64,000 nucleotides of DNA from Gammaproteobacteria bacterium (GCA_012103455.1 WLWT01000001.1:2795288-2859287); one strand, 5' to 3'. Shown: positions 390 through 40,650, numbered from the stretch's first letter. The notes: a model not told the origin generated them from the sequence alone. Numbers and translations: made by a program.

Positions 390-686
390 AGTGGACGAAC
401 CATGCCAAACGGCAGCTTCGTCACATCCATGACTACATCGCCCAGGACTCGCCCATGTATGCCAGGCGGGTCAGTGAAGCACTGGTCAAAAGAACCATTG
501 GCCTGGACGATGCTACCCCGCAAAGGACGGACAGTGCCAGAGCTGAACGAAGAAGCCGTGCGGGAACTAGGGCTGTATTCCTACCGGATTTTGTACGAGA
601 TCAAATCCGATGACCTTATCGAGGTATTGGCCGTGATTCATAAACGGCGGCATCTGGAGGCTGAGGAGATTCCGAGAGATCAATGA
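383..686 (+). pseudogene. ParE/RelE-family toxin, frameshifted near 510
   Basis: The N-terminus MVKWTNHAKRQLRHIHDYI...VSEALVKRT lies in frame 2 (383..613). The C-terminus LPRKGRTVPELNEEAVRELGLYSYRILYEIKSDDLIEVLAVIHKRR lies in frame 0 (402..686). The two join at ~507-515 with a 1-nt indel. Confidence 0.55.
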
Positions 687-698
687 CAAAGCCCCGCT

Positions 699-1055
699 TC
701 ATTCCACATAATCCTCAAATTCCCATCGCCCAAGTCGAGAAACTCTCGTTGCCACCTCATTCCAATCCTCACCTGAACAATGCATTAAATATTTATTAAT
801 CCTTCGGATGATGTTTTCGTAATTGTACTCGCGGACAATAAAATGGTGACGACCAATAACAATCTCATCCAGCCCATATGTTTTTTCAATCCACTTGGGC
901 GTACATACCTCAATATCAAACGATTCTTCCCAGTCTTCTCCCACAGGACCGATCATCGCCTGTAACAAAAAGGCAAAGCACTCTGGTTCTGCAGGTTGAT
1001 GACCGAGAAGATCGTCTACATCAGGGCTATGAACACGCTTTAGTTCTGCTTTCAT
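699..1055 (-). CDS. putative immunity protein for the orphan rhs C-terminal toxin
   Basis: 118-aa acidic ORF whose start lies 4 nt downstream of the stop of the rhs-CT ORF (1060). This is the classic rhs-CT/rhsI arrangement. Confidence 0.45.
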   Translation of the reverse strand: MKAELKRVHSPDVDDLLGHQPAEPECFAFLLQAMIGPVGEDWEESFDIEVCTPKWIEKTYGLDEIVIGRHHFIVREYNYENIIRRINKYLMHCSGEDWNEVATRVSRLGRWEFEDYVE

Positions 1056-1059
1056 AGCT

Positions 1060-3726
1060 CTAACCTATAACATCTAGATGACTATTGGATTGCCATCCTT
1101 TTGTCTTCTGTCCTGGGATTTTTTGCTCAAAGTTTGCTTGAGTTTTACCCAGCTTACCTTTGTAGCTAGGTGGACGATATTGCCTTAACCCATCTTTTCC
1201 GACCAAGGTTTTTCCATCACTTGCTATCTTGTAGTCATCACCAACCCAAGCCTTACCTAGCTTATCGGCTTCCGTTCTTGTGCCAGTACCTAGGCCAAAG
1301 TTTCCTTTCCCTTTAGCCGCATCACGAAGGATGCCTATTTCCTTCGCTACACCCTTTGAGGCACAATTATGAACCCATACTCCCCGCTCCCCCACAAAAT
1401 AAGTATGGAACTTGTCAACACTGATATCATAGGCAAGAAAAGCACTCTCACGCGTGCGCGCCGCCACAACATCAAGGGACTCGCCCGTCGCGGTCACTAG
1501 CTGCATGCCCGCCGACACACTATCCGCCCGGATAAATCCTTGCCCTCCGACATAGAACGGATGTTCGGCCGTGGTGACGAGGGTCTCCATACCGCCGTCA
1601 TGGGCAATACCGAGGCTGATTTGGCTGGCATGTTCTCTCGCGCCCACGCCCGTGACCGCTTGGTAAGCCGTCTCGCCGGTGGTCTCATGGCGCGAAAAGA
1701 CTAAGTCCCCCCTCTGCAAGGACTCGATGGGCACCGGGCCTTGTTCGGTGAGTACCGGGGTGCCGGCGGGGAAACTGCAGGTGCCTTTGAAGATGCCGCG
1801 GACGATGCCATACAGCCCGCGGGCACTGTTGGCCATCTTCGCCACTTGCTGGCCAATCAGGGCGCCGGGCGCCGCACCCACGCCCAGGCCTAGTGCGCCG
1901 ATCCCCGCGCCCACCGCCGCGCCACCGAGGCGCAGCGCGGTTTCTTCTATGGCCGCCTGTGCCGCCTGTTCGTGCCGGCCATAGAGAGCGAGTCCCTTCG
2001 ACTCGGCGTAGGGAATACCGGTGGTCCCGGCCGCTGCGGACAGGAGTTGGGGGGCGGCGCTGCTCACCCGGTCCCAAAAGCTGGGCCGTTTTTCATAGCT
2101 GGTTCGTTGGGCGGTTGAGTTGTTGTGGATGGAGCCGGTGGCCACGGTGCCGAAGGGGTCGACGAACATGACCGGGTTGTTGGCGGCATAGGCGTATTGG
2201 TTGACGCCATCGACAAAGCCCAGCGGGTCGCGCTGGGTGAACCGGCCGGTACTGGGGTCGTAGTAGCGCGCCCGGTAGTAGAGCAGGCCGGTTGCGTCCG
2301 CTTCGCGGCCGGTGTAGTCGAAGCGTTGCAGGTGGCCGCTACGGGTCACGACAGTGCCCCAGGCGTCGTATTGGTGGGCGCCCAGTAGGGTGCCGGCGGC
2401 ATCGGTCATGGCCACGACGGAGCCGAGGCCGTCTTGTTGGTAAAACTGGCTGGCGCCGTCGGCGTCGGTGTGGATGAGCGGGTTATCGATGCCGGCGTGG
2501 GTATAGCGGCCCGCCGCTTGGGTCCAGGTGCCGCCGTAGTCGGCCACCAGGTTGGCGCCTGAGTAGATAAACCGCTCGGTCGCCGCGCCTTGTCGTTTCT
2601 CGATGCGCCGGCCGCCGGGGTCGTATTGGTAGGTCTCGAGGGAGCCATCGTCGAGCTCGGCGCTACTCAAGCGGTCCAGGGCGTCATAGTTGAGTGTGAG
2701 GACGGGCAGTACGCCGCCGGCCAGTTGGCGGGTCAGGTTGCCGTTGTCATCGTATTCGTAGCCCATGTCCGTGCTGGCGCCGCTATCGATAGTGAGCAAT
2801 CTCATCAATGGTGAGGGTGGGGCTGCCGTTTTCGTTGAAGAAATAACGCTTGACGAAGCCGCGCTCATTGGTGGTGGTGGCCTCGCGGCGATAGTCGTTG
2901 TCAGTGAAGGTCAGGGTGCCGCCCCGATCATCGGTGTGGCGCAACACCCGTCCATTGCTGTAGTACTCGAAGGTCATGCCGTTGCCGTTGGGCTTTTGGT
3001 AGCGGCGCAGGGCGTGATTGAGATTCACCCCGTCGGCGAGGCCGTAGTACTCGTACGTCAGGCCCGGTTGCTGGCCGCTGGCCGCGAGCGGGTTATCGAC
3101 GCGCTCCAACTCGCCGTCGGCGTTGTAGTGGTAGCGCCACTCGCGCCCCGTCGAGGGGTAGGTCCAGTCACGCAGGTGGGTAATGCGCTGGGCCGAGTCG
3201 TACAACAAGGTGATGACCCGGTCGAGGTCATCGGTGACGGTGTCCAGGGTACCGGCTGGGCCGTAGTCGAAGCGCAGGCCGTTGCCATTGCGGTCTTCGA
3301 GGCGCAGCACGCGGGCTGTTTGGCCGACCGTGCCGGGGACATTCTCGAAGAAATAGCTAAAGCCGTTTTTCTCCCGAATGCGATAGCGCCCATCGGGTTC
3401 ACGGCTGGCGGTGAAATAAAAGCCCTGCGGTGGGGTGAACGCGGCGCCGATGGCCACACCGCCGGCGGCGCCGGCGACGGGGATGAAGCGCTGTCCGCCA
3501 TCGCCGGTGGTCCAGGTGACCGATGAGGTCAGGGTGTCCTCGTCGGCGGACTCCTCTTGCGCATCGCCATCGCTGTCCTCGAAGGTCAGGAAGTGATTGA
3601 AACTGTGCGTCCAGCCGTAACCGAGGGGCGCCGTTGAGGCGTTGGGATGGGCGGCGGCCAGACTGTTGTAGGTGCGTTGAAAAGAGATAGGCAGCCCGCC
3701 GCGGCCAATGACCCGCAAGTCCTGTG
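1060..3726 (-). pseudogene. rhs: rhs orphan module (degenerate): internal YD-repeat segment fused out of frame to RHS core (YDPSTGRFTQRDPLG), pretoxin-HINT domain (CSFPAGTPV...VWVHNC) and an unrelated C-terminal toxin domain
   Basis: Two overlapping ORFs, 2783..3718 and 1060..2868, in different frames. Both are near-identical in protein to the main rhs (approx aa 1080-1390 and aa 2095-2390 of the 8152..15582 product). Homology to the main gene begins abruptly at ~3726. Confidence 0.8.
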
Positions 3727-5977: not shown

Positions 5978-6059
5978 TATGGTCTCGTTATCACCTTCCT
6001 CAATAGCATGCGCTAAAGCCGAGCCAACACTATACCCATCGCCATTGAAAGTGCGAATC

Positions 6060-7150
6060 TAGAATACTTACATTAGCTAGCTGATTATGGTCAAAATAAG
6101 CTTATGAACAATCATTTAACACCGAACGAGCGCGATGAACTCATAAAATCTCATCGTAAAGAGAGAGATGGGCGTATTCGAGACCGAATAAAAGCGGTTT
6201 TAGCTTTTGATGAGGGTTATAGTTATTCAGAAATTTCCAGGATTTTGCTTTTAGATGATGAGACTATTAGACGCCCTGTCGATGATTACTTTTCTAAAGC
6301 TAAGCTGAAGCCCGAAAACGGGGGCAGCAAAAGTGATTGAGACGAGCATGAAACAGCAAAGCTCGTTAAACACATAGAAGGAATGACTTATCCTTATGTT
6401 AAGGACATCTGCACTTATGTGAAGTTGAATGTTGGTAAGCTTTACAGTGTAAGCGGCATGACAAAATGGCTGCATCGCAATAATGTCTGCCATAAGAAGC
6501 CTGATGCAGTTCCAGCGAAAGCAAACGCACAGGCGCAAAAAGCGTTTGTCAAAGACTATGAACATCTTTCGAAAAACGCTAAAAACAAGGGTTTAATCTA
6601 TTTCTCGGACAGTTTTCACCCACAGTATCAAACGCGGTTGGCTTATGAATGGATTTTAAGAGGCACTCGAAAGAATATTGCCACAACGGCTCGTCAAACA
6701 CGATTGAATTTCATTGGTGCTGTATCTTTGGAGGGTCACACAATAATCCACACTGAAGTTGAGCGAGTGAATGCGCAAACCATTAAATCTTTTCTAAAAT
6801 CTCTACGCAAACGGCATACACCAGAGAAAGAAATTCATGTAATTTGGGATAATGCGGCTTATCATAAGAGCAAAGACGTTCAGTCTTATGCCAAGGACTC
6901 AAACATTAAATTACACTATTTGCCGCCCTATTCACCGAATTTAAATCCAATTGAGCGACTTTGGAAAATGATGCATGAAGCGGTTACTTATAATCGGTAC
7001 TATGAGAAGTTTGTAGATTTTCGGGAAGCCTCTTTGAATTTTTTCAAGCGCGTTGGAAGACGAAAGGCTTTATTGAGAAAAGAATCACTGATAGGTTTCA
7101 CATTATTAATGCACCGATGTTCGCATCTTGAAGTGTGATGGGTATATTGG
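6060..7150. mobile_element. IS630-family insertion sequence (low GC ~40%), boundaries approximate
   Basis: Contains an HTH ORF (6104..6340) and a DDE ORF (6383..7138) with HVIWDNAAYHKSKDVQSYA...LHYLPPYSPNLNPIERLWKMMHE, typical of IS630/Tc1. Sharp GC drop relative to flanks. Terminal inverted repeats not confidently resolved. Confidence 0.65.
6104..7138 (+). pseudogene. IS630 transposase interrupted by a single in-frame TGA (6338-6340)
   Basis: ORFs 6104..6340 and 6383..7138 are in the same frame. The intervening 14 codons, DEHETAKLVKHIEG, have no other stop and align with the HTH-to-DDE linker. Confidence 0.65.
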
Positions 7151-7249
7151 ACTCCAGGCGCCCTAGTCGGAGTCGGTCCGGTCGCACCGGTTGGTACACG
7201 TATCGCCTCACCGTTTGGGGTGACTACGAAATCCGGGGCCTTCGATGGG

Positions 7250-7285
7250 TCGGATACCCTCTTTGGCGGACAATTATGAACCCAT
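7250..7285 (-). other. remnant 3' end of a third pretoxin-HINT domain (encodes ...VWVHNC) marking a truncated orphan toxin module
   Basis: ggacaattatgaacccatac matches the VWVHNC-coding sequence at 1370-1390 and 7822-7842. Followed by novel sequence (PPKRVSDPSKAPDFVVTPNGEAIRV...) that runs into IS630. Confidence 0.45.
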
Positions 7286-7305
7286 ACCCCATATATTTTT
7301 TAAGT

Positions 7306-7560
7306 TTACTCAACATACAGCTTATCAATCAGTTCTTCTAAGCTTTTCCCTTTTATGTTGGCGTTATATTCTTCGTCGAAGCCAACTTCCAAAAGATAAT
7401 CAGAACACAGTTCTCTTAAATCGACAGCATCATCTTCATCTAGATCTTTAAGCACAACACAGGTGGGTTGATCTTCGAAATCTAGTCTTTTCTGCCATTT
7501 GAAGTGTTCCTTGACTTCAATCAACATGCCTCTCTGCTGGGAGGTCAGACGCACGATCAT
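7306..7560 (-). CDS. putative immunity protein for the main rhs C-terminal toxin
   Basis: 84-aa acidic ORF whose ATG overlaps the stop of the toxin ORF (7557). Confidence 0.5.
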   Translation of the reverse strand: MIVRLTSQQRGMLIEVKEHFKWQKRLDFEDQPTCVVLKDLDEDDAVDLRELCSDYLLEVGFDEEYNANIKGKSLEELIDKLYVE

Positions 7561-8294
7561 TGCCCACCTCCCTGTTGCCTTTTCAGTCGTTCTGCTAATT
7601 TAGAGCCCGTGGGATGAACAGTAACAACTTTTCCAGTTTCTGGGTTGATCGCCACAGTTGCCTTTTCACCAATGAACTTCTCGCTCGGTCGTCCCTGACT
7701 GTCATATTTTACATTAGTCTTTTTGAGCGGATTTTTTACAGCATCTAGCTCATCAGTGCTTTTTACCTGTCGGTTAATTTTTTGGTTAAGACTATGTTTG
7801 GTGTGCTGTATTGTTCCCTTTGTAACCGGACAATTGTGAACCCATACTCCCCGCTCCCCCACAAAATAAGTATGGAACTGATCAACACTGATATCATAGG
7901 CAAGAAAAGCACTCGCGCGCGTGCGCGCCGCCACTACATCAAGGGACTCGCCCGTCGCTGTCACTAGCTGCATACCCGCCGACACACTATCCGCCCGGAT
8001 AAATCCTCGCCCTCTGACATAGAACGGATGTTCGGCCGTGGTGACGAGGGTCTCTATACCGCCGCCATAGGCAATACCGAGGCTGACGTGGCTGGCATGT
8101 TCTCTCGCGCCCACGCCCGTGACCGCTTGGTAAGCCGTCTCGCCGGTGGTCTCATGGCGTGAAAAGACTAAGTCCCCTCTCTGGCAAGGACTCGATGGGC
8201 ACCAGGCCCTGTTCGGTGAGTACCGGGGTGCCGGCGGGGAAACTGCAGGTGCCTTTGAAGATGCCGCGGACGATGCCATACAGCCTGCGGGCAC
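7557..8294 (-). CDS. rhs: C-terminal portion of main rhs: distal pretoxin-HINT domain plus 90-aa C-terminal toxin domain. It is in a different frame from 8152..15582 because of a 1-nt frameshift at ~8186.
   Basis: ...QRGDLVFSRHETTGE...FHTYFVGERGVWVHNC is near-identical to the orphan HINT domain. It is then followed by the unique tail PVTKGTIQHTKHS...ATVAINPETGKVVTVHPTG. Confidence 0.7.
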   Translation of the reverse strand: MPAGCMASSAASSKAPAVSPPAPRYSPNRAWCPSSPCQRGDLVFSRHETTGETAYQAVTGVGAREHASHVSLGIAYGGGIETLVTTAEHPFYVRGRGFIRADSVSAGMQLVTATGESLDVVAARTRASAFLAYDISVDQFHTYFVGERGVWVHNCPVTKGTIQHTKHSLNQKINRQVKSTDELDAVKNPLKKTNVKYDSQGRPSEKFIGEKATVAINPETGKVVTVHPTGSKLAERLKRQQGGGQ

Positions 8295-11200
8295 TGTTGG
8301 CCATCTTCACCACTTGCTGGCCAATCAGGGCGCCGGGTGCCGCACCCACGCCCAGGCCTAGTGCGCCGATCCCCGCGCCCACCGCCGCGCCACCGAGGCG
8401 CAGCGCGGTTTCTTCTATGGCCGCCTGTTCCGCCTGTTCCGCCTGTTCGTGCCGGCCAAATAGCGTCAGGACGCCCGACTCGGCGTAGGGAATACCGGCG
8501 GTCCCGGCCGCCGCGGACAGGAGTTGGGGGGCGGCGCTGCTCACCCGGTCCCAAAAGCTGGGCCGTTTTTCATAGCTGGTTCGTTGGGCGGTTGAGTTGT
8601 TGTGGATGGAACCGGTGGCCACGGTGCCGAAGGGGTCGACGAACATGACCGGGTTGTTGGCGGCATAGGCGTATTGGTTGACGCCATCGACAAAGCCTAG
8701 TGGGTCGCGCTGGGTGAACCGGCCGGTCCCGGGGTCGTAGTAGCGCGCCCGGTAGTAGAGCAGGCCGGTTGCATCCGCTTCGCGGCCGGTGTAGCCGAAG
8801 CGTTGCAGGTGGCCGCTACGGGTCACGACAGTGCCCCAGGCGTCGTATTGGTGGGCGCCCAGTAGGGTGCCGGCGGCATCGGTCATGGCCACGACGGAGC
8901 CGAGGCCGTCTTGTTGGTAAAACTGGCTGGCGCCGTTGGCGTCGGTGTGGATGAGCGGGTTGTCGATGCCGGCGTGGGTATAGCGGCCCGCCGCTTGGGT
9001 CCAGGTGCCGCCGTAGTCGGCCACTAGGTTGGCGCCCGAGTAGATAAACCGCTCGGTCGCCGCGCCTTGTCGTTTCTCGATGCGCCGGCCGCCGGGGTCG
9101 TATTGGTAGGTCTCGAGGGAGCCATCGTCGAGCTCGGCGCTACTCAAGCGGTCCAGGGCGTCATAGTTGAGTGTCAGGACGGGCAGTACGCCGCTGGCCA
9201 GTTGGCGGGTCAGGTTGCCGTTGTCATCGTATTCGTAGCCCATGTCCGTGCTGGCGCCGCTATCGATAGTGAGCAATTGATGGGCGGCGTCGTAGGTGTA
9301 GGTGCGAACGCCATCACCGTTGTCTTGGGTGGCGCGGTTGCCGTACACGTCGTAGGTGTAGGCGCCGATGAGCGAGTCATCAGTGGCGTCGGTTACCTGG
9401 GTCAAGCGGTCGAGCGGGTCGTAGGTGTAGCGCCGTTCGCGGGTGGCGCCGCCGAGGGTCTGGGCGTAGGTGTCGCGCAGTCCGGCGGCGTTGTAACTGT
9501 AGGCGTGGCTGCTGATCTGCGAGCCGTCAGCGCGGCGGTTGACGAGGCGGCTCAAGGTGTCGTCGGCGTTGTAGTGATAGCGCGTGGCCAGGCCGTTATC
9601 GAACCAGCGCTCGGTGAGGCGCCCAGCGGCGTCGTAGCCGAAGTTGACCAGGGTCCCGTTGGGCGCCCAGATAGTGGCCAGGCGGCCTACGGGATCGTAC
9701 AGGTACTGGGTGAGGTGGCCTTCACCGTCACCCATGGTATTGAGCAATCCGCCGGCGCTGTAGTGGTATTCGATGCTTTTCCCGCCGCGGTGATCGGCTT
9801 GTCGCACGAGGCGGTGAGCGGTGTCGTATCGGTAGCTGTAGGTGACTTCCGGTGCTTCGACTTGGGTGACTTGGCCCAGGGCGTTGCGGGTGTAGCGGGT
9901 GGTGTGGGGGGTTGCATCCGAGGCATGGCGGTAAGCCCGGCGCTCGGTCACATAGCCGCCGTAGGCGTAGTCGCGTTCGACTCGCTGCCCTTTGGGGTCC
10001 ACCAGGGTGATGAGGTTGTCGTGGAGGTCGTAGGTGAACGTCCAGGTGTTGCCGTTGGCGTCGGTCTGTGAGAGTTTGCGCCCGAAGTCGTCGTAGGTGT
10101 TGATTTGCTGAACGGTGGTGAGGTCGGCGCCCGCGTTCGTGCCGCTGGTCTGGGGGGTATGGCCGGCGGCTATTTGCACCCTGTTGCCGAGGGCATTGTA
10201 TCGGTAGGTGGTGACCGGGCGGATGGCCGGAAGATCGGGGGCTGCGTTGTGCAACGGACCGGCCACGCGCACGACCCGGCCCAGGGCATCGTATTGGGTG
10301 TGGGTATCGCGGCCCAGATGGTCCACTACGCGCGTGACACGGCCGACTGCGTCGTATTCGAAATCGACGTACCGGTTGAGCGGCGAAGTGCGCCGCCTGA
10401 GCCTGCCGTCTCCGGCGGCGCCATAGTAGGTGTGCTGTATTTGATGGCCGTTGGGATCGGTGATGGAGCGCACTCGGCCGATGGCATCGTAGTCGCGTAC
10501 CACGGCGTGGCCTTCTTCGTCGTAGACGCGCACGGCACGGTTCAACGCGTCGTAATCGATGGAGGTACGAAAGCCGTCGGCATCGACCACGGCGGTGAGG
10601 TTGCCCAGGGCGTCGTATTCCGAGCGGGTGACAAAACCACCGGCATCGATGCTTTGGACGGGCCGGTCCAGGGCGTCATAGAGGAATCGGGATTGGTCAA
10701 CCACCGCCGGGGTGCCGCCCGGCGTTGTGACCGTCAGGCGGTGGCCGGTCATGTTGCCGTTGGCGTCAAACCGATAGCGCCGCGGCCACCCCTGGGTGTC
10801 GGTGGATAAGACCAGGCGTCCGGCTCGATCGTAGTGGTGCTCGGAGCGGTACCAGTTGTCGTCGATGCTCGCCGTGGGCCGCCCTAGGGCGTCGTAAGAT
10901 TGTGTGACTTGCCGGCATTCGGTGGACCGCTCGATGCGCGCGTCGCCATCGAGGTCGCCGCACCGGCGTACGGTGACCGGATTGAGCCCGCTGGTGGCGT
11001 TGGCGGTATCGGTGTAGTCGAACTCCGCCGTTGGGCCTTGTTGTGTTTGAAAATCTCTAATGCGCTTGATGATGAGCGGATTGCCGTGGGCATCGAAGGT
11101 CTGTTGAGTCCAGCTCAAGATCGCGGCCGGCACGGGCTCCCACGTGGCCGGATCATAATGCGCGCCGGTGTTCGCCTTCAGTACGAGAGTCTGGGTGATA

Positions 11201-14200
11201 TTACCGGCGGCATCGGACTGATGGAGGGTGATGTTGCCGTTGGCGTCCTTGACCTTCATGGCTTGGGCAAAGGCGTTGAAATGGCTGTATTCGGTGGTCG
11301 CGCCGGAGGGAGCGGTGATGCGCGTGACGTTGCCGTTGGCGTCGTAGTCGTAGCGGGTGGTCAAGCCGGCGGCATCGGTGCGGGCGATTTCATGGAACGG
11401 GGCGAGTGGGTCGTACGTATGTGCCATGCGCCCGCCGTTCTCATCGATGGTGAGGGTGGGGCTGCCGTTCTCATTGAAGAAATAACGCTTGACGAAGCCG
11501 CGCTCATTGGTGGTGGTGGCCTCGCGGCGATAGTCGTTGTCAGTGAAGGTCAGGGTGCCGCCCCGATCATCGGTGTGGCGCAACACCCGTCCATTGCTGT
11601 AGTACTCGAAGGTCATGCCGTTGCCGTTGGGCTTTTGGGAACGGCGCAGGGCGTGATTGAGATTCACCCCGTCGGCGAGGCCGTAGTACTCGTACGTCAG
11701 GCCCGGTTGCTGGCCGCTGGCCGCGAGCGGGTTATCGACGCGCTCCAACTCGCCGTCGGCGTTGTAGTGGTAGCGCCACTCGCGCCCCGTCGAGGGGTAG
11801 GTCCAGTCACGCAGGTGGGTCAGGCGATGGGCCGAGTCGTACAACAAGGTGATGACCCGGTCGAGGTCATCGGTGACGGTGTCCAGGGTACCGGCTGGGC
11901 CGTAGTCGAAGCGAAGGCCGTTGCCATTGCGGTCTTCGAGGCGCAGCACGCGGGCTGTTTGGCCGACCGTGCCGGGGACATTCTCGAAGAAATAGCTGAA
12001 GCCGTTTTTCTCCCGAATGCGATAGCGCCCATCGGGCTCGCGGCTGGCGGCGAAATAAAAGCCCTGCGGTGGGGTGAACGCGGCGCCGATGGCGACACCG
12101 CCGGCGGCGCCAGCGACGGGGATGAAGCGCTGTCCGCCATCACCGGTGGTCCAGGTGACCGATGAGGTCAGGGTGTCCTCGTCAGAACCTTCCACATCGG
12201 CATCGCCATCGCTGTCCTCGAAGGTCAGGAAGTGATTGAAACTGTGCGTCCAGCCGTAACCGAGGGGCGCCGTTGAGGCGTTGGGATGGGCGGCGGCCAG
12301 ACTGTTGTAGGTGCGTTGAAAGGAGATAGGCAGCCCGCCGCGGCCCATGACCCGCAAGTCCTGCTCGATATCGAACAGGTTGCCGGTGGCCATGTTCACC
12401 GGATCACCGCCGCGCGAGGTGCCGTGGGTGGTGCCGTAGTTGATCATCGAGTTGAGGGTGGCCGGGGCGAGCGCCGTGGGCGTGGACGCGCCAGGGGCAC
12501 CGGCGCGGCGGGCCGGCAAGCGGTAGGTGGGGGCGCTGGGCGTGCGGTTGACCGTGTAGCCACCAGCGAAGGGTCCGATTTTGTAGGTGGCGCTCAAGCG
12601 GTTACCGGACTGGCGCGTGGCCACGTAGATTTGGCCGGTCCATTCACCGTAGTCGATAAGACTGACGGGGATTTTGATGTCATGGCCACTGTTGAGCAGC
12701 CCTTGGAGGGTGTTCTTGGTCGCTTGGCTGTAGTCGAGCGCGCCCTCGCCGACCTGTAGCTTGGGCCACTCGGTCGCTTGGTTGGCGGCATTGATGTCCA
12801 GCACTTCGATGCCGCTGTCGTTGGCGAATTGCAGGCCGCGCACGGCGCTGACCGCGTCCATGCGGGCGTTTTCCTGCCACACATAGGATTCGAGCGCAGA
12901 CAAGGCATAACCACCCAAGACGAAGGCTTCAAAGGAGGTCCGGCCGGTCTCCAGATGGGTGCTGCGCGACTGGCCGCCGGGCACGTCGATGAGGAAACCG
13001 CTGTTGGTGACGGCGTAGGGCAAGTCGAACAGATAGCTCACCTCCGTGCGGCTGGCGGTCAAGCCAATGTGCAGTCCGCTTTGGCCGGACTCGCCGTACA
13101 AGCGCCCGACCCGGTGGTACGCATCGGCGATGTAGTGCAGATACTTGAGGCCCACCAGATGCAAAAACTCCCCTAGCGTCGCCTCCTTGTCCTCGGCTGG
13201 GTCGGGGGTGTTGTTGATCCCTTCGAGCAGCCGGGCGGCGCGCGCCTGAATCAAACGCTCGGAGGTCTGATGGCTGTAGAGGTGCAGGGCGTGATAATCG
13301 AAGGCCGAGAGCGTGTCGAAGCGGGTGGCGTTGAGGGTGGCGCCCCCGAGTTGTACCTCGAGCGATAGGGTGCGTTTGGGCAAGCGATCGACCCGCACCA
13401 CATTGGGGTCGAGGGTGGTGCCGCCGTACCACTCGTTGAGCGCGAAGTAACAGGTGGGCGCGGAGGTCGGGTCGAGGTTGACGGCGGCCCCGTCCACTTT
13501 GAGCACCGGAGTGTGATCCCGGACGCACTGAACGGCCCCGTTGCGCTGGATATAAAGCGCACTACCAGGGCCGTAGCGCGCCTCCAGTTGGCGCAGGTAG
13601 GCGCGGCGCTCGGCGTCCAGCGAGCCGCCGGTGCCGGGTTGGAAGGCGAGGGTGAGCCGTTTGAGGGCGATGGCCGGTACATCCAACACGGCATGGCCCA
13701 AGGTGGCGTTGCTTTGGGCGTTGCCCACGTCGATGGACAGCGTATAGCGGTGTTTGGCGGGCAGGGCCGCGGTCTCGGCGGTGGCGGTGCCATCCCAGGC
13801 CAGGTATTGCCTGACCTCATAGGGCAAGGTGGCGGGCAAGATATCGAGGGTGAGCGGCTCGGTGCGCCCGGTATAGGGCACATCGGCCAAGGTGTTGTTG
13901 CCGTAGCGCGGCGCCAGGGTTCGGATATGGGCTTGGACCTGCGCCTCGAACTGTTCGTGGGGCAACAAAAGAGTGCGCGTGCTCAGATAGCTGGCATAGT
14001 CGAACGATACATCGATGGCGATGCCGTCTTGATAGGCGCGGTTCTTGAAAGCGGTATCGATGGGCACCCAGCGGTGGCCGCGGTTATTGGCGCCGGAGCC
14101 CCGATAGTTCCGGTACGGGATACACGCCTCGACCCACACCTGGGTGAAGAAGACGTTATCTCCGGAGCGGCTCGTCGGGATTTGACCCGAAGCCAACAGA

Positions 14201-15582
14201 GCCGCGGCACCGGTTGCGGACCGGGCGCCTAGCCAGCGGTAGAGCCGCTCGTCGTTGTAGAAAGCGACCTGGCCCTTGACGTAGCGCGCCGGGATGTTCG
14301 AGGCGCGCAACAGCGCGAGGGTGAGCGAGGCGTGATCGGTGGCGTTGGCGGCACCGCTGATGAGCGCGCCCTGAGCGCCTTTGAGTGAGCCGAAATACGC
14401 TTCGAAATCAATCTCATTGCTGACGTACTCGATGATGCGCACGGGCGAATAGCCGAGCGATTGGGCCAGCGCGGCGATGTCCGGTGTGACGGCGACCTCG
14501 GCATGGACAGTGGCGGCGGGGCGGCCTAAGTCCGCGGCGGTGTAGTCGCAGGTGGCCGCTTCAGAGGGGGTGGCGGGCGGTTGGCCGACCGTGATGAAGC
14601 GGGCAGGGGGGGTGAAGCGGCCAAGGTCTGAACGGCCAGGGTCTGAACCGCTGGGGCCTGAACTACTGGGACCGAAGCCGGCGCCGTCGGTGCCCGCGGT
14701 GGTGAATTGGGCGGCAGGGAAGCGGGCCGGTGCAAAGCGCGCCAGGGTGTGGCCGTCCAGTAAGCCATCGAAAGCGCCCACCCGGCGGGCGCGCGCGTGT
14801 CGCGGCGGCGGCGCGGGCTTCGAATCATCGTCGCGCAATACCGGCCGTTCATGGTGCACGGTGGGCTGGTTTTCATTGAACGGTGGCGCCACGTAGCGCC
14901 GTGGCGCCGGGATATTGGGCACCCCTGCGGTGCGCGCCTGACGCCGGCTGCTTTCGACCCGTTGTCCCCGGCGCCATTGGCGCAGCGCCTTGCGCGCCTC
15001 GGACAGGGCCCGGCCTTGTGCCTTGGGGGTTCGGGCCTGGTGGATGGCCCGCAAGGTCGCGAGCACCTCTTCGAAGCGGCGCTGCACGCGGGCGGCGAAC
15101 CGGGGACGCTGGCTGCCCGGTTGGCGCGTAACCTTTTCAATCAGTGCCGGGCGCAACTCGGCAATGGCCGTGATATGGCGCTGAAGCTGGACTTTGGCTT
15201 GGGTGGACAGCAAGGCCCCGGTAGGCGTCGCCCGGCGAATGCGCCGCAGCGTCCTGCTGGTGTCCTTGAGCGTTGCGACCAACTCATGGGAGGTGGTGTC
15301 CAGGGCGCGCACCAGAGAGGCTTGCACGGCGCTGGCGATCAGTTCGCTATGAATGCGCCGGCCCTTGTTGCGCTCCTGGGCGCCAGCGCCGGCCATGGCG
15401 AGGAGTGCCAGTAGGGCGCCTAGCGTTATGGCCAGCGCAAGACGCCTGCCGATGGCCGTGTGTATTCTTATGGCTTGGTCGAAATATCGGTGCTGGGCAA
15501 CAGACCGCGCGAGGCCGAGTGGAGATTGAATGAACTGAGCGGGCGTGAGCCAAGTCGCCAAATAGGTGATTGCACCAAGCAT
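8152..15582 (-). CDS. rhs: RHS-repeat polymorphic toxin (2476 codons): N-terminal leader with Sec-like hydrophobic segment, degenerate transglutaminase-like domain, YD repeats, RHS core YYDPGTGRFTQRDPLG, start of pretoxin-HINT (CSFPAGTPV). The reading frame breaks inside the HINT domain.
   Basis: Numerous YD/RHS repeats (YxYDxxGxL). The core motif is at ~8700-8760. The ORF stops prematurely at 8152 within the HINT domain, unlike the intact orphan copy. Confidence 0.85.
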   Translation of the reverse strand: MLGAITYLATWLTPAQFIQSPLGLARSVAQHRYFDQAIRIHTAIGRRLALAITLGALLALLAMAGAGAQERNKGRRIHSELIASAVQASLVRALDTTSHELVATLKDTSRTLRRIRRATPTGALLSTQAKVQLQRHITAIAELRPALIEKVTRQPGSQRPRFAARVQRRFEEVLATLRAIHQARTPKAQGRALSEARKALRQWRRGQRVESSRRQARTAGVPNIPAPRRYVAPPFNENQPTVHHERPVLRDDDSKPAPPPRHARARRVGAFDGLLDGHTLARFAPARFPAAQFTTAGTDGAGFGPSSSGPSGSDPGRSDLGRFTPPARFITVGQPPATPSEAATCDYTAADLGRPAATVHAEVAVTPDIAALAQSLGYSPVRIIEYVSNEIDFEAYFGSLKGAQGALISGAANATDHASLTLALLRASNIPARYVKGQVAFYNDERLYRWLGARSATGAAALLASGQIPTSRSGDNVFFTQVWVEACIPYRNYRGSGANNRGHRWVPIDTAFKNRAYQDGIAIDVSFDYASYLSTRTLLLPHEQFEAQVQAHIRTLAPRYGNNTLADVPYTGRTEPLTLDILPATLPYEVRQYLAWDGTATAETAALPAKHRYTLSIDVGNAQSNATLGHAVLDVPAIALKRLTLAFQPGTGGSLDAERRAYLRQLEARYGPGSALYIQRNGAVQCVRDHTPVLKVDGAAVNLDPTSAPTCYFALNEWYGGTTLDPNVVRVDRLPKRTLSLEVQLGGATLNATRFDTLSAFDYHALHLYSHQTSERLIQARAARLLEGINNTPDPAEDKEATLGEFLHLVGLKYLHYIADAYHRVGRLYGESGQSGLHIGLTASRTEVSYLFDLPYAVTNSGFLIDVPGGQSRSTHLETGRTSFEAFVLGGYALSALESYVWQENARMDAVSAVRGLQFANDSGIEVLDINAANQATEWPKLQVGEGALDYSQATKNTLQGLLNSGHDIKIPVSLIDYGEWTGQIYVATRQSGNRLSATYKIGPFAGGYTVNRTPSAPTYRLPARRAGAPGASTPTALAPATLNSMINYGTTHGTSRGGDPVNMATGNLFDIEQDLRVMGRGGLPISFQRTYNSLAAAHPNASTAPLGYGWTHSFNHFLTFEDSDGDADVEGSDEDTLTSSVTWTTGDGGQRFIPVAGAAGGVAIGAAFTPPQGFYFAASREPDGRYRIREKNGFSYFFENVPGTVGQTARVLRLEDRNGNGLRFDYGPAGTLDTVTDDLDRVITLLYDSAHRLTHLRDWTYPSTGREWRYHYNADGELERVDNPLAASGQQPGLTYEYYGLADGVNLNHALRRSQKPNGNGMTFEYYSNGRVLRHTDDRGGTLTFTDNDYRREATTTNERGFVKRYFFNENGSPTLTIDENGGRMAHTYDPLAPFHEIARTDAAGLTTRYDYDANGNVTRITAPSGATTEYSHFNAFAQAMKVKDANGNITLHQSDAAGNITQTLVLKANTGAHYDPATWEPVPAAILSWTQQTFDAHGNPLIIKRIRDFQTQQGPTAEFDYTDTANATSGLNPVTVRRCGDLDGDARIERSTECRQVTQSYDALGRPTASIDDNWYRSEHHYDRAGRLVLSTDTQGWPRRYRFDANGNMTGHRLTVTTPGGTPAVVDQSRFLYDALDRPVQSIDAGGFVTRSEYDALGNLTAVVDADGFRTSIDYDALNRAVRVYDEEGHAVVRDYDAIGRVRSITDPNGHQIQHTYYGAAGDGRLRRRTSPLNRYVDFEYDAVGRVTRVVDHLGRDTHTQYDALGRVVRVAGPLHNAAPDLPAIRPVTTYRYNALGNRVQIAAGHTPQTSGTNAGADLTTVQQINTYDDFGRKLSQTDANGNTWTFTYDLHDNLITLVDPKGQRVERDYAYGGYVTERRAYRHASDATPHTTRYTRNALGQVTQVEAPEVTYSYRYDTAHRLVRQADHRGGKSIEYHYSAGGLLNTMGDGEGHLTQYLYDPVGRLATIWAPNGTLVNFGYDAAGRLTERWFDNGLATRYHYNADDTLSRLVNRRADGSQISSHAYSYNAAGLRDTYAQTLGGATRERRYTYDPLDRLTQVTDATDDSLIGAYTYDVYGNRATQDNGDGVRTYTYDAAHQLLTIDSGASTDMGYEYDDNGNLTRQLASGVLPVLTLNYDALDRLSSAELDDGSLETYQYDPGGRRIEKRQGAATERFIYSGANLVADYGGTWTQAAGRYTHAGIDNPLIHTDANGASQFYQQDGLGSVVAMTDAAGTLLGAHQYDAWGTVVTRSGHLQRFGYTGREADATGLLYYRARYYDPGTGRFTQRDPLGFVDGVNQYAYAANNPVMFVDPFGTVATGSIHNNSTAQRTSYEKRPSFWDRVSSAAPQLLSAAAGTAGIPYAESGVLTLFGRHEQAEQAEQAAIEETALRLGGAAVGAGIGALGLGVGAAPGALIGQQVVKMANSARRLYGIVRGIFKGTCSFPAGTPVLTEQGLVPIESLPERGLSLFTP

Positions 15583-16411: not shown

Positions 16412-19400
16412 GTGTTGGGTGCATTAAAGGGACTACGCTGGTACTGGCGGGGAACGGTACTGGTTGCGTTAGCGCTGTTGGCCTTTTCGCTGAGTTCATG
16501 GGCGGCAACGCAGACGCAACTCGATGCGGCTAGGGCGGCGGCGCTCGCTTGGTTGATTGAGCGCCAGCAAGGCGACGGTAGCTGGCGGGGACGGCCCGGC
16601 AACGACATTCAGGTATCTGCCAACAGCTTGCTCGCGATGGAACGGGCCGGCGTCAACGGTTATGTGCATTCACGCGGGCTTAGCTGGCTCACCAATGCTG
16701 AACCGCGAAGCATTGATGCGTTGGCGCAGCAGGCGATCGTGCTGCAAGGGGCGGGTCTACAGACGCAGCCTCTGTTCGAGGCGCTGATCGCGAGGCGCAA
16801 CCGGCTGAGTGCGTGGGGTGCGTACAGTCAGTTTTCGACCAGCTTCCCGGATACACCGCTGGCCATGCGCGCCCTGCGCTCCGATGCGGCGACGTATCAG
16901 GCGGAAAGATCCAAGCTGTTGATCGGGCTTTGCGAGATCTTGCGTTCGCAGAAAACCGCCTCTGATGCGGGGAGTTGGTCCTATCTCGCCGCCGATGATC
17001 CAGCGTTGGTGTCAACCGGCAAGAGTGCCGTGATTCCCACCGCGCAGAACGTTGTGGAACTGCACGCCTTCATTGCACTGGGATACTCCGCTAGGACCTG
17101 TAATGGCTACAACTTCAATCTGGCTACCGCTGTAGATGCGGGCGTTGATTGGTTGATCGGGCTCGTTGACGGCGATGGTGGGATCGGTGTGGATGGGAGT
17201 ACGGTGCTGGAGACGAGCGCTGCGTTCCTCGTCATCGATACGGTTCGTTCGGGTGCGCCTTCTCTGGCCGTGTTGCAGGACTATTTGGTCAATACACAGG
17301 CGGCGGATGGCGCCTGGGAACAAGATGCGCTCGTGACTGCGTTGGCGGCCCGAACATTCGCCGCGACCCAACTGGCCGATACCGATGGCGATGGCCTGCC
17401 CGATGTTGTCGAAGCCAGGCTGGGTACCGATCCGGGGCTCGCCGATGCCAGAGCGCTGGTCAAGGGTAACGGTGCCAGCGAACTCGGGATTACCGCACCA
17501 CACGTGTTCTCGGCCCGGCTCGGCCAGCCGTTCTCCGCTGATCTGATGATCACCGGGGGCGTTGCTCCTTATTCTTGGCGGGTAACGGGTTTTCTGCCGG
17601 ACGGGATCGCGTCGGTGGGTAGTACGACGGCTACCAACACGCTGGCGGGTACGCCCACGGTGACCGGAACGTTTAACTTTGGTTATGGGGTGACGGATGC
17701 CAACGGTACGGTACTCACCGGCAATGGACAGCTCCGAGTCAATATCCCACCGGTGTTGGCGGCCCCGGCGGACCCAGTGTCAAGTGAAGGCGCAGCCGTC
17801 TCGCTAACCGTCGCCGCCTCCGATGAGGATGGCGATTCATTGAGTTACAGTGCGAGTGGACTGCCACCAGGGCTGAGCATCAACGCGGCGACTGGCGAGA
17901 TTGTGGGCAACCTGGATTATGTCTCGACCGGTGTCTACGCAGGCGCGACGGTCACAGTCAGCGATGGGTCGGACGCGGTAAGCCAGCAGTTCACTTGGAC
18001 GGTCAACGATGTGGACCGCGAGCCGGTGATCGATACAGCACCGGCTTCGCTGACCAGTGACGAAGGTGCCGCCATCGCGCTGGGCGCGACAGCCAGCGAC
18101 CCGGATGGTTTGGCGGTCGGCTTCAGCTACACCAACCTGCCCCCAGGTGTTACCTACTCCAGTGCAACCGGCGACATCACTGGTACGCCTACTTATGAGG
18201 CCGCGGGTACTTATTCGATTACGTTGACCGTAAGCGACGGCTTTTTGCAGGCCACTCACGGTTTTGTATGGACGGTGAACGACACAAACCGCGCGCCGCT
18301 GCTCGATGACCTTGGCGTGATCTTCGTGAACGAAGGCAACCAGACGGAGCTTACCCTCGCTTTCAGCGATCCCGACAATCATAACTTGAACGTGACGGTG
18401 AACTCGGTGGCCACGTTCGTGACGGCGACGCCCAACCCCGACGGCACGATCACGCTGACGATTGCGCCCGGAAGCGATGATGCTCAGAGCGCTAGTTATC
18501 CGGTTATCGTCAGCGTCACCGATACGCATGCGGCGCCATTGACGACCAGCAAGACGCTGCAGATCGGTGTTATCGAGGATTCAGGGGCGACTCATGTCGT
18601 GCAATTGTCCTCCGGCTACGGCGATTTCAAGCTTGAGTTGTACGGAGCGGTTGCGCCACGAGCGGTCAGTGCGTTTCTGACTTTGGTGTCCACGGGTGAA
18701 CTGGAGGGGTCACTCGTCGATCACATTGGATTTCCAACCCAACGGCCGATTTTGCAGAGCGGTGGCTTGCGTTTAGAAGGGAGCCAATGGGAGCGGGTCA
18801 ACGAGGGTGGGGCGCTTGCGAGCGAGCCGGGTATCGCACATGAGTATGGAACGGTTGCGCTCACGTCGGCGACAGGGCTTTGGCCGAATTTCTCGCGGAG
18901 CCAATGGTTTATCAATCCGGCGGATAATTCTTCGGCGCTGAGTTCAGCTACGCAGACGGTATTCGGGCGAGTGGTGGACGGCTGGCCTGTCATATCAGCC
19001 ATCGCCAATACGCCTGTATACAACGCGAGCGCTATTGATTTCGCTGGGATTGGCCGGGCCGAGGAATCGACTCTAACGCAACTGCCCTTGGTGAACGCTT
19101 CGATTCCGATATTACTGGGCGGTGTTGTTGAACTATCGGCTTACGCCAGACCCTGCACGTTAATCGGGATCGCGGGCGAGCCGTTCCAATCGGAGTTCCC
19201 GCTACCGGTGGGGTTGACGGCGCCCTATACCTATGCGATCAGTTCGGGTGCTTTGCCACCGGGTGTGACACTTGATCCCGTCACTGGAATTATTGCTGGC
19301 GCGACCAACGCCGGTGGGCGTTATCCATTTAGTTACACGATGACGGACGCGCTGTCGGCTCAGGCGAGCGCTCACTGTACGTTTATCGTGAACTCACCCC

Positions 19401-22400
19401 CTGTTGTGCAGATGATTGCTGATCAGAGCAACGAGGAGGGGGAATCGGTCTCGGTGCCGGTGCTGGCGACGGATGCCGATCCAGGCGATATTTTGACCTA
19501 CGGTCTGGCGAGCGGTCACCTGCTACCACAAGGCGTGAACATCGATCCGGTCACGGGTGTCATGTCCGGGGTGATCGCGGCGGCCAGCGCGGGCTCCTAC
19601 ACGCCGGTGGTGACGGTTTCCGATGGCATTTTCACCCTGTCCGAGACATTTGGCTGGTTGGTGGATGCCGCCGATGGCTTGGTGGTGACGGATATCGCCG
19701 ATGTAACCATGGACGAAGGCGATTCGGTTGACGTTGCCGTCACTGCAAGTGGCGTCGCTGTGTCGCTTTGCATCGTACCGGGCAGTCCATTGCCGCCGTT
19801 CGTCACCTTGGCCGACAACGGTGATGGTACGGGGAGTATCCATATCGCGCCTACTCATGCGGATGCGGGTTCGTATACCGTTGCCGTCACGGTTGGCGCT
19901 TCGCAATCATTGTGTACCAGGCCGCCGGAGGCGCAGCTATTTGCCCCGGTGAGGAAGACGTTTACGGTGGACGTGGCAGATGTTAATCAGCCACCCGCGG
20001 TCATGTTGCCTGGCGCCCAGTCCCATCGCGCGGGGGCGACGGTCAATCTTCCTATCCCGGCCTCCGATCCGGAAGGCGGGACGTTGCGATTCGCTGCGGT
20101 TGATTTGCCAGCCGGGCTGACCATAGACGCCGCCAGCGGCACCATCAGTGGCGCCATCGCGCTGGACGCGCGGGGCGACTACAGCGTAGCCCTCTCAATT
20201 TTGGATGTGCTCGACAACCGGGTTCATGGCTACACGCTGCAATGGACGGTTACCGCCAACAACATCGCGCCGACGGCCATCGACGATGCGGTGAGTACCG
20301 ATGAGGATGTCGCCCTCACGTTTGACGTGCGCGTCAACGATACCGATGCGAACGGTGATGTGTTGGCAATCGATAGCCATACGGCCGTGGCGAACGGTAC
20401 TCTTGTTCTCAATGCCGACGGCACATTCAGCTACACGCCCAATGCGCAGTTCAGCGGCTCGGAGTCCTTTGATTATGTGATCACCGATGGCGCCAGCTCT
20501 GACACCGGGACGGTGACCATCACTGTGGAGGCGGTGAATGATCCACCGTCGGTCACGAATCCGGTGCTTGTGAGCAGTGCCGAGAACGATACCGTCAACT
20601 TGACGCTGGTGGCGAGTGACGAAGAAGGACAGGCCCTCACGTACTCAGCATCGGGTCTACCGGGCGGACTTTCCATGAACGCGGACACTGGTGCTGTGAC
20701 CGGCGTGTTGGGCTACACGACGGCCGGTAGTTATACCGTCGCAGCCAATGTGGCCGACGCGGGCGGCGCGTCTACCGAGGTGGTTTTCACTTGGGTGGTG
20801 CGCGACATCAACCAAGCACCCGTGGCGGCGGCCGACTCGGTTTCCACGCCGGAGGATACACCGGCAAGTATTGCGGTGCTTGCGAACGACGTTGAGCCCG
20901 ATGGACAGGCACTAGCTGTCACCGCGGTGACGCAACCGTCCGATGGGACGGCGATCATCAATGCGGACAACACCGTTACCTATACCCCCAACCAGAATTT
21001 CTTCGGCGCGGATACATTTCACTACACCGTGAGTGACGGCTTGCTCGGTATCAATGTAGCGGCTGTAAGCGTTACCGTTACGGCGCAAAACGATGCGCCG
21101 GTCGCGGTCGCTGATAGCGTGACCGTAGATGAGGGTACATGGGCCGTCGTTGATCTCGCCGCCAATGATATTGACGTCGAGAACGCGCTGGACCTTGCGA
21201 GTATCGCCATCACCGTTGGCGCTAACCACGGCACGCTGGTCAACGACGGCGACGGTACAGTGGGGTACCGACACGATGGTAGCGAAACCACGGGTGACAG
21301 TTTCACGTACACGATTGCAGATACTTCAGGTGCATCTTCGAACCCGGTCAGTGTGACCATCACCGTTACGCCGGTGAACGACGCGCCCATTGCGGCGGCT
21401 GATGCGGGAGCGGTGGCCGAAGGCGCCACGCAGAACATTGATATCGCGGGCAATGACACCGACGCGGAAAACGCGCTGGATCCGAACAGTGTGACAATTG
21501 TCAGCGCGCCCATGAATGGATCGGTTCGGATCTTCGCCGACGGTACGGTTGACTACACGCACGATAGTAGTGAAACCCTGGCTGATCGCTTTCAGTACAC
21601 CATCGCCGACACGAGCGGTACGCCTTCTAACGTGGCAAGTGTTGCCATCACGGTATCCGCAGTCAATGACGCCCCGGTTGCATCGGACGACAGCACGGTT
21701 GTCGCGGAAGGGGCAAGTCTTTCCATCGACGTAGTTGGTAACGATGCCGATGCCGATGATGGCCTGGACTTGACGAGCGTGGTGATAGTTGCAGGCGCCA
21801 CCAATGGCACACTCGTGGTCAATTCGAACGGCACGGTGGTTTATGAGCACGATGGCTCGGAAACGCTTTCAGATAGTTTCAGCTACACCGTTGCCGATGT
21901 CGGTGGGGCGGTATCCAACGTTGCTATCGTCGCTATCACTGTTGCTCCGACCAACGATAATCCCGTGGCTGTTGGAGAAACAGTCGCCGTTGACGAAGGC
22001 GGTGCGGTAACAATCAATGTGGTTGTAAACGATACCGACAGCGACGATGCTTTGAATCCGAGCAGTGTCTCAGTGGTGTCAGGTACGACTAATGGCGTAC
22101 TGATCAACCATGCCGATGGCACGCTGACCTATACCCATGATGGCAGTGAGACCACCGCCGATAGCTTCAGCTACACGATTGCTGATACTACCGGCGCGGT
22201 ATCCAACGCCGCCACGGTCACTATCTCCGTGACGCCGCAAAATGATGCGCCAGTGGCCACAGCTGACAGCCAGACAGTTGCCGAAGCCGGCGCAGTCGTT
22301 ATTGATGTGGCGGGCAACGATTCCGATCCGGACGATGGCATCGTTGCCTCGAGTGTGGTGGTGGTTGCTGGAGCGACCAACGGCAGCTTGACCAACAATC

Positions 22401-39749: not shown

Positions 39750-40650
39750 GCTCTTAGAACCTGTTCAAGATCTGACGATTTTGGACATCTGACCTAAGCT
39801 ATTGTTATCCATAGTCATAGCGGCTGCGAAGGCAATGACAGACGAGCGAATCTACCCGAGTGACCTATCTCGCCAACAGTTCGAGAAAGTTAGACCGATC
39901 CTGGAGGCGGCGCGTCGGCGAACCAAGCCAAGGCAACTCGATCTCTATCACGTGTTCAACGCAGTGTTGTACCTGCTGAAGACCGGCTGCCAATGGCGCA
40001 TGTTGCCCAACGAGTATCCAAAGTGGCGAAGTGTGCATGAGTATTTCACTATCTGGCGGCAATCGTCCCCAGAAGACTCTTGCAGCGCCTTGGACAAGGC
40101 GTTAAAAAAATGGGTTGGCGAGGCCCGCAAATCCCAGGGGCGCAGTGGCAAAACCAGCCTGATCATCGTTGATGCACAGAGCGTGAAGAACACAGACAGT
40201 GCAAACCACAAAGGTTATGACGCAGGCAAGAAGACTTCTGGTATCAAGCGGCACATAGCTGTGGACACTCAGGGATTGGTGCACGCTGCTTTTGTGACCA
40301 CGGCAAATGTCACTGATCGAGCTGGGGCACTGGCCGCACTTGCTGCTCAAGCAGATGGGCGCCTCTCGGAGGTTAGGTGTGTAGTGGGCGATGGCGGGTA
40401 CACGGGGATGGCTTTCGCTGGCGAAGTGCTGAGATTAATCGGAGCGAACGTCGAAATTATCAAACGCTCGGACACGGGTCGTTTTGCCGTCCTCCCGAAG
40501 AGGTGGGTTGTCGAGCGAACCTTCTCATGGTTTGAGAAAAACCGCCGGTTGTGGAAAAACTGTGAGCGGCTAATCGAAAGCTCGTTGGGCATGATGCTAC
40601 TTGCAAATATTGCGCTGTTGCTTCGGAGATCTTGAACAGGCTCTAAGAGC
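39750..40650. mobile_element. IS5-family insertion sequence (~0.9 kb) with 24-bp imperfect terminal inverted repeats GCTCTTAGA(A/G)CCTGTTCAAGATCT
   Basis: IRs at 39750-39773 and 40627-40650. A single transposase ORF lies inside. It interrupts a methyltransferase gene whose halves are collinear across it. Confidence 0.75.
39835..40635 (+). CDS. IS5-family DDE transposase
   Basis: ...LPKRWVVERTFSWFEKNRRLWKNCERL is a typical IS5/IS427-group C-terminal motif. The listed ORF starts at 39802 (MLSIVIAAAKA, 11 extra codons); 39835 (MTDERIYPSDL) is chosen as the more likely start. Confidence 0.75.
   Translation: MTDERIYPSDLSRQQFEKVRPILEAARRRTKPRQLDLYHVFNAVLYLLKTGCQWRMLPNEYPKWRSVHEYFTIWRQSSPEDSCSALDKALKKWVGEARKSQGRSGKTSLIIVDAQSVKNTDSANHKGYDAGKKTSGIKRHIAVDTQGLVHAAFVTTANVTDRAGALAALAAQADGRLSEVRCVVGDGGYTGMAFAGEVLRLIGANVEIIKRSDTGRFAVLPKRWVVERTFSWFEKNRRLWKNCERLIESSLGMMLLANIALLLRRS

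Follow-up and report, generated by a model that had tools for sequence, protein, structure and literature searches.

We analyzed a 64,000-nucleotide stretch of DNA (the window; WLWT01000001.1:2795288-2859287 of assembly GCA_012103455.1) from a metagenome-assembled genome (MAG) named "Gammaproteobacteria bacterium", with locus tags GKR94 and multi-megabase contigs, and all findings on the source genome's locus refer to these 64 kb. No GTDB representative genome belongs to the source species; the best match among them is 47% identical. The subject is an rhs polymorphic-toxin locus, the central open reading frame (ORF) of which occupies 8152..15582 (-) and has 2476 codons. On the same strand follow a second ORF, which encodes most of a HINT domain together with a toxin, and a small candidate immunity gene, and a giant gene diverges from rhs on the other side.

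An earlier, sequence-only reading had described a single 2476-codon product carrying a Sec-like N-terminus, a transglutaminase-like domain, an RHS shell and core, a HINT domain and a toxin. Every one of these domain calls is right, but the product does not hold them all: the HINT string quoted in that reading bridges a +1 frameshift that went unremarked, and the toxin, with the greater part of the HINT domain, falls outside the ORF. The rhs ORF ends in CSFPAGTPVLTEQGLVPIESLPERGLSLFTP and a stop codon, 21 residues into the PT-HINT domain (C2446...IESL; 8185..8247, -, in the rhs frame), and the remainder of the domain (QRGDLVFSRHE... to FHTYFVGERGVWVHNC, including TTAEHPF and VWVHN-C; 7830..8183, -) is read with the toxin in the +1 frame, in an ORF at 7557..8294 (-). 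The lesion is one extra C at 8183/8184: the main gene has TTGCCAGAG, with a CC pair at 8183..8184 (-), whereas the intact copies, namely a displaced orphan copy within the window and an allelic contig (L082), have TTGCAGAG with a single C. The insertion shifts the frame by +1 and is followed by a premature stop at 8152-8154, 11 codons later; with its two parts in different frames, the PT-HINT domain is not contiguously translatable in the window gene. The two pieces were annotated separately by NCBI as NKC13293.1 and NKC13292.1.

Comparison with other copies separates intact and disrupted variants. The orphan copy (1363-2800), 96% identical to the main gene, reads IESLQRGDLVFSRHE in a single frame. 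L082 (WLWG01001534.1) is intact and 99.46% identical to the window over 10.8 kb, the sole gap being the extra C. Two other contigs carry the extra C: L083, from a different assembly (GCA_012267655.1), aligns with the window over 16.6 kb without gaps at 99.66% identity, and L001 is 1.5 kb long; the intact L082 and the lesion-carrying L001 are both records of GCA_012263365.1. At the protein level, an intact 2692-aa paralogue in the same MAG (P0308, NKC16811.1) and an intact 2697-aa variant (P0313) both have IESLQRGDLVF in frame and, behind the core, the in-frame variable C-terminal toxin that the window gene lacks, and the window rhs product shares its truncated end with two non-identical proteins (P0311 and P0312). 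Because L083, from another assembly, carries the same extra C, we take the frameshift to be a real inherited lesion and not an error of one sequence, and the window gene as encoded is predicted to be a shell without a toxin. At 5 nt downstream of the extra C, a G has become an A, and the two changes together suggest a complex mutation that may have been templated. The frameshift site is spanned by an inverted repeat resembling a hairpin (GAGTCC...GGGACTT; 8170-8193, -).

The HINT domain itself is well supported. The PT-HINT profile (PF07591) gives an E-value of 6e-23 (82.1 bits against a gathering threshold of 27.7; profile positions 15-136) and intein_Cterm one of 2.5e-4, and the intein-type residues are all present: Cys1 (C2446), block B TTAEHPF and the terminal HN with its +1 Cys (VHN-C), immediately before the toxin. 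The same set of Cys1, block B TxxH, terminal HN and +1 Cys is shared by class-1 inteins, bacterial intein-like (BIL) domains and the Hedgehog Hint domain; unlike in those, the HINT domain of the window sits as a pretoxin module, and its splicing or cleavage is a prediction. The main copy, the orphan copy and L082 are homologous up to CACAATTGT (HNC) and no further, each continuing with a different toxin. The window and L082, elsewhere ~0.5% divergent, differ by ~4% across the linker and HINT. The GC content is 65% in rhs, 43% in the toxin and 40% in the immunity gene. From the end of homology at HNC, the rise in divergence and the drop in GC, we read the HINT domain, and not the Rhs core, as the conserved recombination handle, and the cassette behind it as having arrived horizontally from elsewhere.

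The cassette attached to the main gene starts with a toxin of 90 aa plus stop (toxin A; 7557..7829, -). Its family comprises 857 cluster representatives, in which it always forms the protein C-terminus; relatives 79-95% identical are found in Vibrio navarrensis and Chromatiaceae, and members also occur behind PT-VENN and RHS modules. A DUF4258 match was obtained for 8/25 family members (best 3.1e-9). For an AF2 structure model of toxin A (pLDDT 85), Foldseek matched 3ao9_B, CdiA-CT of NC101 (5i4r) and colicin E5 with probability 0.93-1.0, TM about 0.5-0.6 and an E-value of 6e-3, and toxin A is accordingly modeled as a predicted colicin-E5/CdiA-CT-like RNase of the BECR fold, related to DUF4258. 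A profile search of PDB sequences with toxin A gave a chance 20-residue match to HU and nothing else, and no usable match to Pfam or NCBIfam emerged, even with permissive thresholds, for toxin A, its immunity protein, the toxins of the orphan copy (B) and L082 (C) or a 189-aa ORF described below. The ORF downstream of toxin A (84 aa; 7306..7560, -) overlaps the toxin stop codon in ATGA. Since homologues of the same length, 68-70% identical and with the same 4-nt overlap, recur after homologous toxins in three other loci (L084, L085 and L086), we assign it as the presumptive cognate immunity gene. The likeness to colicin E5, CdiA-CT(NC101) and the DUF4258 RNases lies in the predicted toxin fold and in the DUF4258 matches of relatives, whereas the immunity protein belongs to an unrelated 84-aa family that has no Pfam model.

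Upstream of the lesion, we compared the rhs protein with 80 related loci identified in GTDB genomes, 45 of them with complete C-termini. The protein begins with a signal-peptide-like segment (residues 1-68; 15379..15582, -) consisting of a 47-residue n-region ending in RR and an h-region (L48-A68) ending in AGA/QE. M1 is the sole canonical start codon upstream of the h-region, the Kyte-Doolittle value is 1.7-1.8 across residues 46-69, and homologues in 80/80 related loci have ordinary signal peptides at the equivalent position. The Sec-like N-terminus of the sequence-only reading is kept here as a putative signal peptide, judged by eye and from the hydropathy profile only. Behind it come a helical region (residues 79-217; 14932..15348, -), a disordered Pro/Gly-rich linker (residues 218-335; 14578-14931, -) and the transglutaminase-like core (residues 375-509; 14056..14460, -), which matches Pfam Transglut_core with an E-value of 8.1e-10 (39.4 bits against a cutoff of 23). 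T415 (14338-14340, -) aligns with the catalytic Cys of 3isr_A, the His column of the family is occupied by Q481 (14140-14142, -), and D509 (14056-14058, -) is kept. The earlier claim of a replaced Cys and His beside a retained Asp is right, and the interpretation of the domain as a probable pseudo-enzyme holds. The inactive-transglutaminase RHS class is marked by such triad loss. Among the scored relatives, the Cys position has Cys in 0/76 and Thr in 69/76, and the His and Asp are kept in 74/76 and 71/73, respectively. The family pocket is a constrained Thr-His-Asp, conserved and not simply decayed, that may serve ligand binding or non-thiol chemistry; with Gln for His, the window protein is more degenerate than most of its relatives.

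The following beta-rich and helical module (residues 510-1003; 12574..14055, -) is conserved in 80/80 related loci. It has no Pfam family and no informative fold match in PDB, and permissive searches of Pfam and NCBIfam with residues 520-1060 gave nothing usable. The RHS part starts with DUF6531, the N-terminal plug (residues 1059-1129; 12196..12408, -; Pfam 4.5e-16), and continues with the YD/RHS repeat shell (8848..12195, -; RHS_repeat 2.9e-80 over 12 stretches, TIGR01643 5.5e-58) and the Rhs-associated core (residues 2246-2319; 8626..8847, -; TIGR03696 Rhs_assc_core 1.5e-25), the end of which reads ...NNPVMFVDPFG/T. YD repeats and a core with the PxxxxDPxG motif, as expected of RHS/YD polymorphic toxins, are thus both present, in agreement with the earlier description, and VDPFG/T is the presumed aspartyl autoprotease site. 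Cutting of Rhs cores at DPFG/T is established chemistry of the family, and structures published after 2012 show the RHS shell encapsulating its cargo. Between core and HINT lies a linker of 126 residues (8248..8625, -) with a weak DUF6861 match. Within it, 28 residues form a hydrophobic segment rich in Gly and Ala (LRLGGAAVGAGIGALGLGVGAAPGALIG; 8320-8403, -) that resembles a glycine zipper, and similar Gly-rich stretches are seen in some other Rhs-to-HINT proteins (P0215 and P0225).

The signal peptide and the N-terminal module are found in all 80 related loci, nearly all of which also have DUF6531 and YD repeats within the recovered contig, and the Rhs core is found in those with a contig long enough to cover it. 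Among the organisms are Thiobacillus, Methylomonas, Thauera, Aquabacterium, Halochromatium, Desulfobulbus, Geobacter and Rokubacteria. A HINT domain was found in 0/45 of the complete relatives (profile search of the 80 loci, E<=10, filters off), and the idea that HINT is typical of the transglutaminase-RHS family was dropped. The architecture of signal peptide, inactive transglutaminase and RHS was described by Zhang, de Souza, Anantharaman, Iyer & Aravind (2012, Biol Direct 7:18; PMC3482391), who saw in HINT the peptidase that processes Sec-dependent polymorphic toxins, listed HINT, RHS and inactive transglutaminase together under the Sec/type II secretion system (T2SS) route in their Table 1, and found HINT with all stalk repeat types and never with a type VI secretion system (T6SS). 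The claim that RHS with PT-HINT departs from the textbook does not hold, as the architecture was catalogued in 2012 and proteins with Rhs core and PT-HINT exist elsewhere; it is right in that HINT is exceptional within the transglutaminase-RHS family. With the toxins of this class the window copy shares the signal peptide, the transglutaminase with its triad lost, the RHS, the variable C-terminal toxin and the immunity gene, and it differs in the added PT-HINT and in being frameshifted. It is a disrupted further example of an already described architecture.

Proteins with the order Rhs core, linker and PT-HINT include a Gynuella sunshinyii protein that NCBI names "RHS repeat/hint domain-containing protein" (P0217), one of Glaciecola sp. 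MH2013 (P0218) and others from metagenomes. They share with the window the Rhs core, a variable linker, a HINT domain with Cys1, TxxHPF and HN, and the toxin; compared outside the N-terminal architecture they are ~30% identical to it, and the HINT domain of the window, in contrast to theirs, is split by the frameshift. In the literature searched, we found no later work, beyond the 2011 and 2012 papers of the Aravind group, on inactive-transglutaminase RHS toxins, on RHS with HINT in the context of the cocoon or on the partner gene described next.

The earlier reading had considered the export route not evident from the window. The window does hold a clue to a partner. By clustering the ORFs neighboring rhs in the related loci, we found a conserved gene encoding a signal peptide, alpha/alpha-toroid repeats (SQHop_cyclase/Prenyltrans-like), a TSP3 repeat and a He_PIG immunoglobulin-like (Ig) domain; some copies end in IPTL-CTERM or dockerin. 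The gene is adjacent to rhs in 72/75 loci with enough flanking sequence, immediately upstream on the same strand in 63, upstream and divergent in 4, downstream in 3 and fused in 2 (L036 and L077, at the RHS N-terminus). The initial neighbor clustering picked up the partner in 53 loci and gave a median gap of 23 nt between it and rhs. Cultured carriers of the toroid-RHS pair are Thiobacillus thioparus DSM 505, Methylomonas methanica, Thauera sinica and Halochromatium glycolicum. In the window, the gene divergent from rhs (16412..25507, +; 3031 aa) encodes a Big_9/cadherin/cyclophilin "tandem-95 repeat" protein whose first ~450 residues (16412..17800, +) are the partner homologue, with signal peptide, alpha/alpha-toroid, TSP3 and He_PIG (tblastn 1e-65, 41% identity; Pfam). 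The same protein has a cyclophilin peptidyl-prolyl isomerase domain (residues 730-871) among its Ig and cadherin repeats. Weak TED_complement matches led us to look for a thioester motif (CGEQ) in the toroid partner, and none was seen. The partner is not mentioned by Zhang et al. (PMC3482391).

Further features surround the locus. The displaced rhs remnant (699..3724, -) matches the main gene in two blocks, 2800-3724 corresponding to 11439-12363 and 1363-2800 to 7830-9277, and has an internal deletion of 2161 nt. Its linker, HINT and toxin B (1060..2868), the latter without a Pfam family, are intact and accompanied by an Imm8 immunity gene (699..1055; 5.6e-36). In L082, this orphan stands directly after the main immunity gene. 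The sampled population contains the locus in two allelic forms (L082 versus window positions 1-8300). The intact allele reads rhs-toxC-immC and then orphan B, with a DnaG-like gene in a downstream primase/integrase island; the frameshifted allele reads rhs-toxA-immA, IS630, a 189-aa ORF, a DUF433/DUF5615 pair, a DnaG-like gene, an rhs fragment and orphan B. The IS630-family transposase (6104..7138, +), made up of a helix-turn-helix ORF (6104..6340; HTH_33) and a DDE_3 ORF (6383..7138; 3.4e-38), is inserted just downstream of the immunity gene. The rhs debris is flanked by two toxin-antitoxin-like pairs, DUF433 with the PIN-like DUF5615 (4828-5387, +) and a ParE-like ORF (402..686) preceded by a 59-aa ORF (together 210-686, +). 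Between rhs and the giant gene, a 137-aa ORF (15960-16373, +) encodes a signal peptide and three ETIPP repeats, the latter in a perfect 15-nt tandem repeat of 2.8 copies (16051-16092), and has no Pfam match and no homologue in the related loci. Farther away, a stretch of low GC content (48%) at 38000-40700 contains an IS4/IS5-family transposase (39802..40635).

Could the frameshift be an artefact of sequencing or assembly, the organism making one intact protein of ~2687 aa? The source is a MAG with contigs of a size typical of indel-prone long-read assemblies, and both the paralogue and the allele are intact. We nevertheless consider this very improbable: the same extra C is present in L083, which comes from another assembly and differs at ~0.3% of positions, and again in L001; the change is CC for C, with no long homopolymer, and is joined by the nearby G-to-A substitution; and the intact and the frameshifted allele both come from GCA_012263365.1, suggesting no systematic assembly artefact at the site. 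We give hardly any credence to a lesion that is decoded by programmed +1 frameshifting or recoding to yield a regulated, low-level toxin. Its appeal comes from the Shine-Dalgarno-like GAGAGGGGA immediately 5' of CTT AGT, an arrangement that we take to be loosely reminiscent of the prfB site, from the inverted repeat over the site, from the presence of the allele in at least two assemblies and from the fact that a slip at CTT_A restores the frame with four residues changed (predicted junction IESLPERGLVFSR). A prfB-type site, however, combines a slippery CUU-U, a stop or hungry codon and a spaced Shine-Dalgarno sequence, whereas here the Shine-Dalgarno-like sequence abuts CTT AGT and the A site holds no stop or rare codon. 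Moreover, UUA pairs poorly with the tRNA reading CUU, the purine-rich run is the coding sequence of QRGD and is present in the intact copies as well, and the product of the slip would replace the near-invariant G24 and D25 of HINT.

Granting a real and undecoded lesion, the truncated, toxin-less RHS protein might itself be the functional product, such as a surface protein or an adhesin acting with the giant neighbor, and not a decaying pseudogene. The 2476-codon ORF is open in three non-identical variants and the neighboring partner gene is intact, encoding 3031 aa, yet the variants, at >99% identity, are too young for decay to be visible; a toxin left orphaned with its immunity gene and an IS630 element downstream are typical of cassette turnover at rhs loci, and the intact paralogue provides the toxin function. 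We think such a role unlikely. Delivery could also be of another kind altogether, the protein being a T6SS-delivered Rhs effector or the BC component of a Tc (ABC) toxin with its partners outside the window. T6SS Rhs effectors and TcB-TcC cocoons do share the DUF6531-type plug, the YD shell and the autoprotease motif of the Rhs core with the window protein, and 64 kb is a small view of a genome. Yet, as the earlier reading had noted for PAAR- and VgrG-type N-termini, we found no Pfam or NCBIfam match to PAAR, prePAAR, VgrG, SpvB, TcdB or TcA in the rhs protein or the scanned window ORFs. Where those systems have PAAR/VgrG or SpvB/TcA-binding parts, this protein has a signal peptide, found in 80/80 relatives, and a pseudo-transglutaminase N-module, along with an extra release module, HINT, that was never combined with T6SS in the published survey (PMC3482391); the conserved neighbor is a toroid/Ig protein and not VgrG or TcA. 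It would be a great surprise if this alternative were correct.

In our view this is very probably a polymorphic-toxin locus on the chromosome that belongs to the Sec-dependent "inactive transglutaminase-RHS" class and whose cassette has been uncoupled by the extra C in the HINT domain. Several points weigh against this assignment. The cargo behind the core, ~365 aa, is 115-195 aa longer than that of the relatives (170-250 aa after the core); the 47-residue n-region is atypically long for a signal peptide, a call that rests on sequence and hydropathy; and toxin A has no Pfam match of its own, DUF4258 being matched by relatives only, and a modest Foldseek E-value (6e-3) in spite of a probability of 1.0. 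The inactive-transglutaminase RHS class was described in silico only (PMC3482391). As the source is a MAG, the extra C rests on assembled contigs, and the 7.4-kb ORF upstream of the lesion is open in three variants, such that the truncated protein may retain a function.

The intact design of a locus in this class is represented by the 2692- and 2697-aa paralogues: signal peptide, helical region, the Cys-less transglutaminase-like module with a conserved domain of ~500 aa, DUF6531, YD shell, Rhs core, 126-aa linker, PT-HINT, a toxin right after HN-C and an immunity gene. From the observed domains, frameshift, recombination boundary, partner linkage and toxin fold, we infer export, anchoring and two cleavage steps. 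The intact protein would be exported by Sec and displayed or anchored at the surface through its pseudo-transglutaminase N-module and the toroid/Ig partner. The Rhs core would cut the ~365-aa cargo free at DPFG/T, and HINT would then release the toxin by Asn cyclization at HN/C, with Cys1 possibly contributing a cleavage or a thioester at the HINT N-terminus. Asn cyclization is established intein chemistry. In the target cell the toxin would cleave RNA, the 84-aa protein protecting kin. In the window allele this chain would be broken at HINT. More tentatively, the toroid-TSP3-Ig protein may pair with the Cys-less transglutaminase N-module in a two-component system, so far undescribed, that displays or delivers Sec-exported RHS toxins at the diderm surface, distinct from T6SS and Tc, to which this lineage has added a HINT cargo cassette; we raise this as a possibility and do not favor it.

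As originally submitted, the finding matters little, the architecture having been catalogued in 2012 and this copy being inactivated. As a natural case of cassettes being exchanged with HINT as the handle, the locus is a clean one, and it places an intein-like release module behind a cargo-enclosing shell, a combination unaddressed in the literature searched. For Sec-dependent RHS toxins of Gram-negative bacteria, for which no route through the outer membrane is known, the toroid/Ig neighbor and its two natural fusions offer a concrete partner candidate. This partner is a lead worth following and possibly the new point of the analysis.

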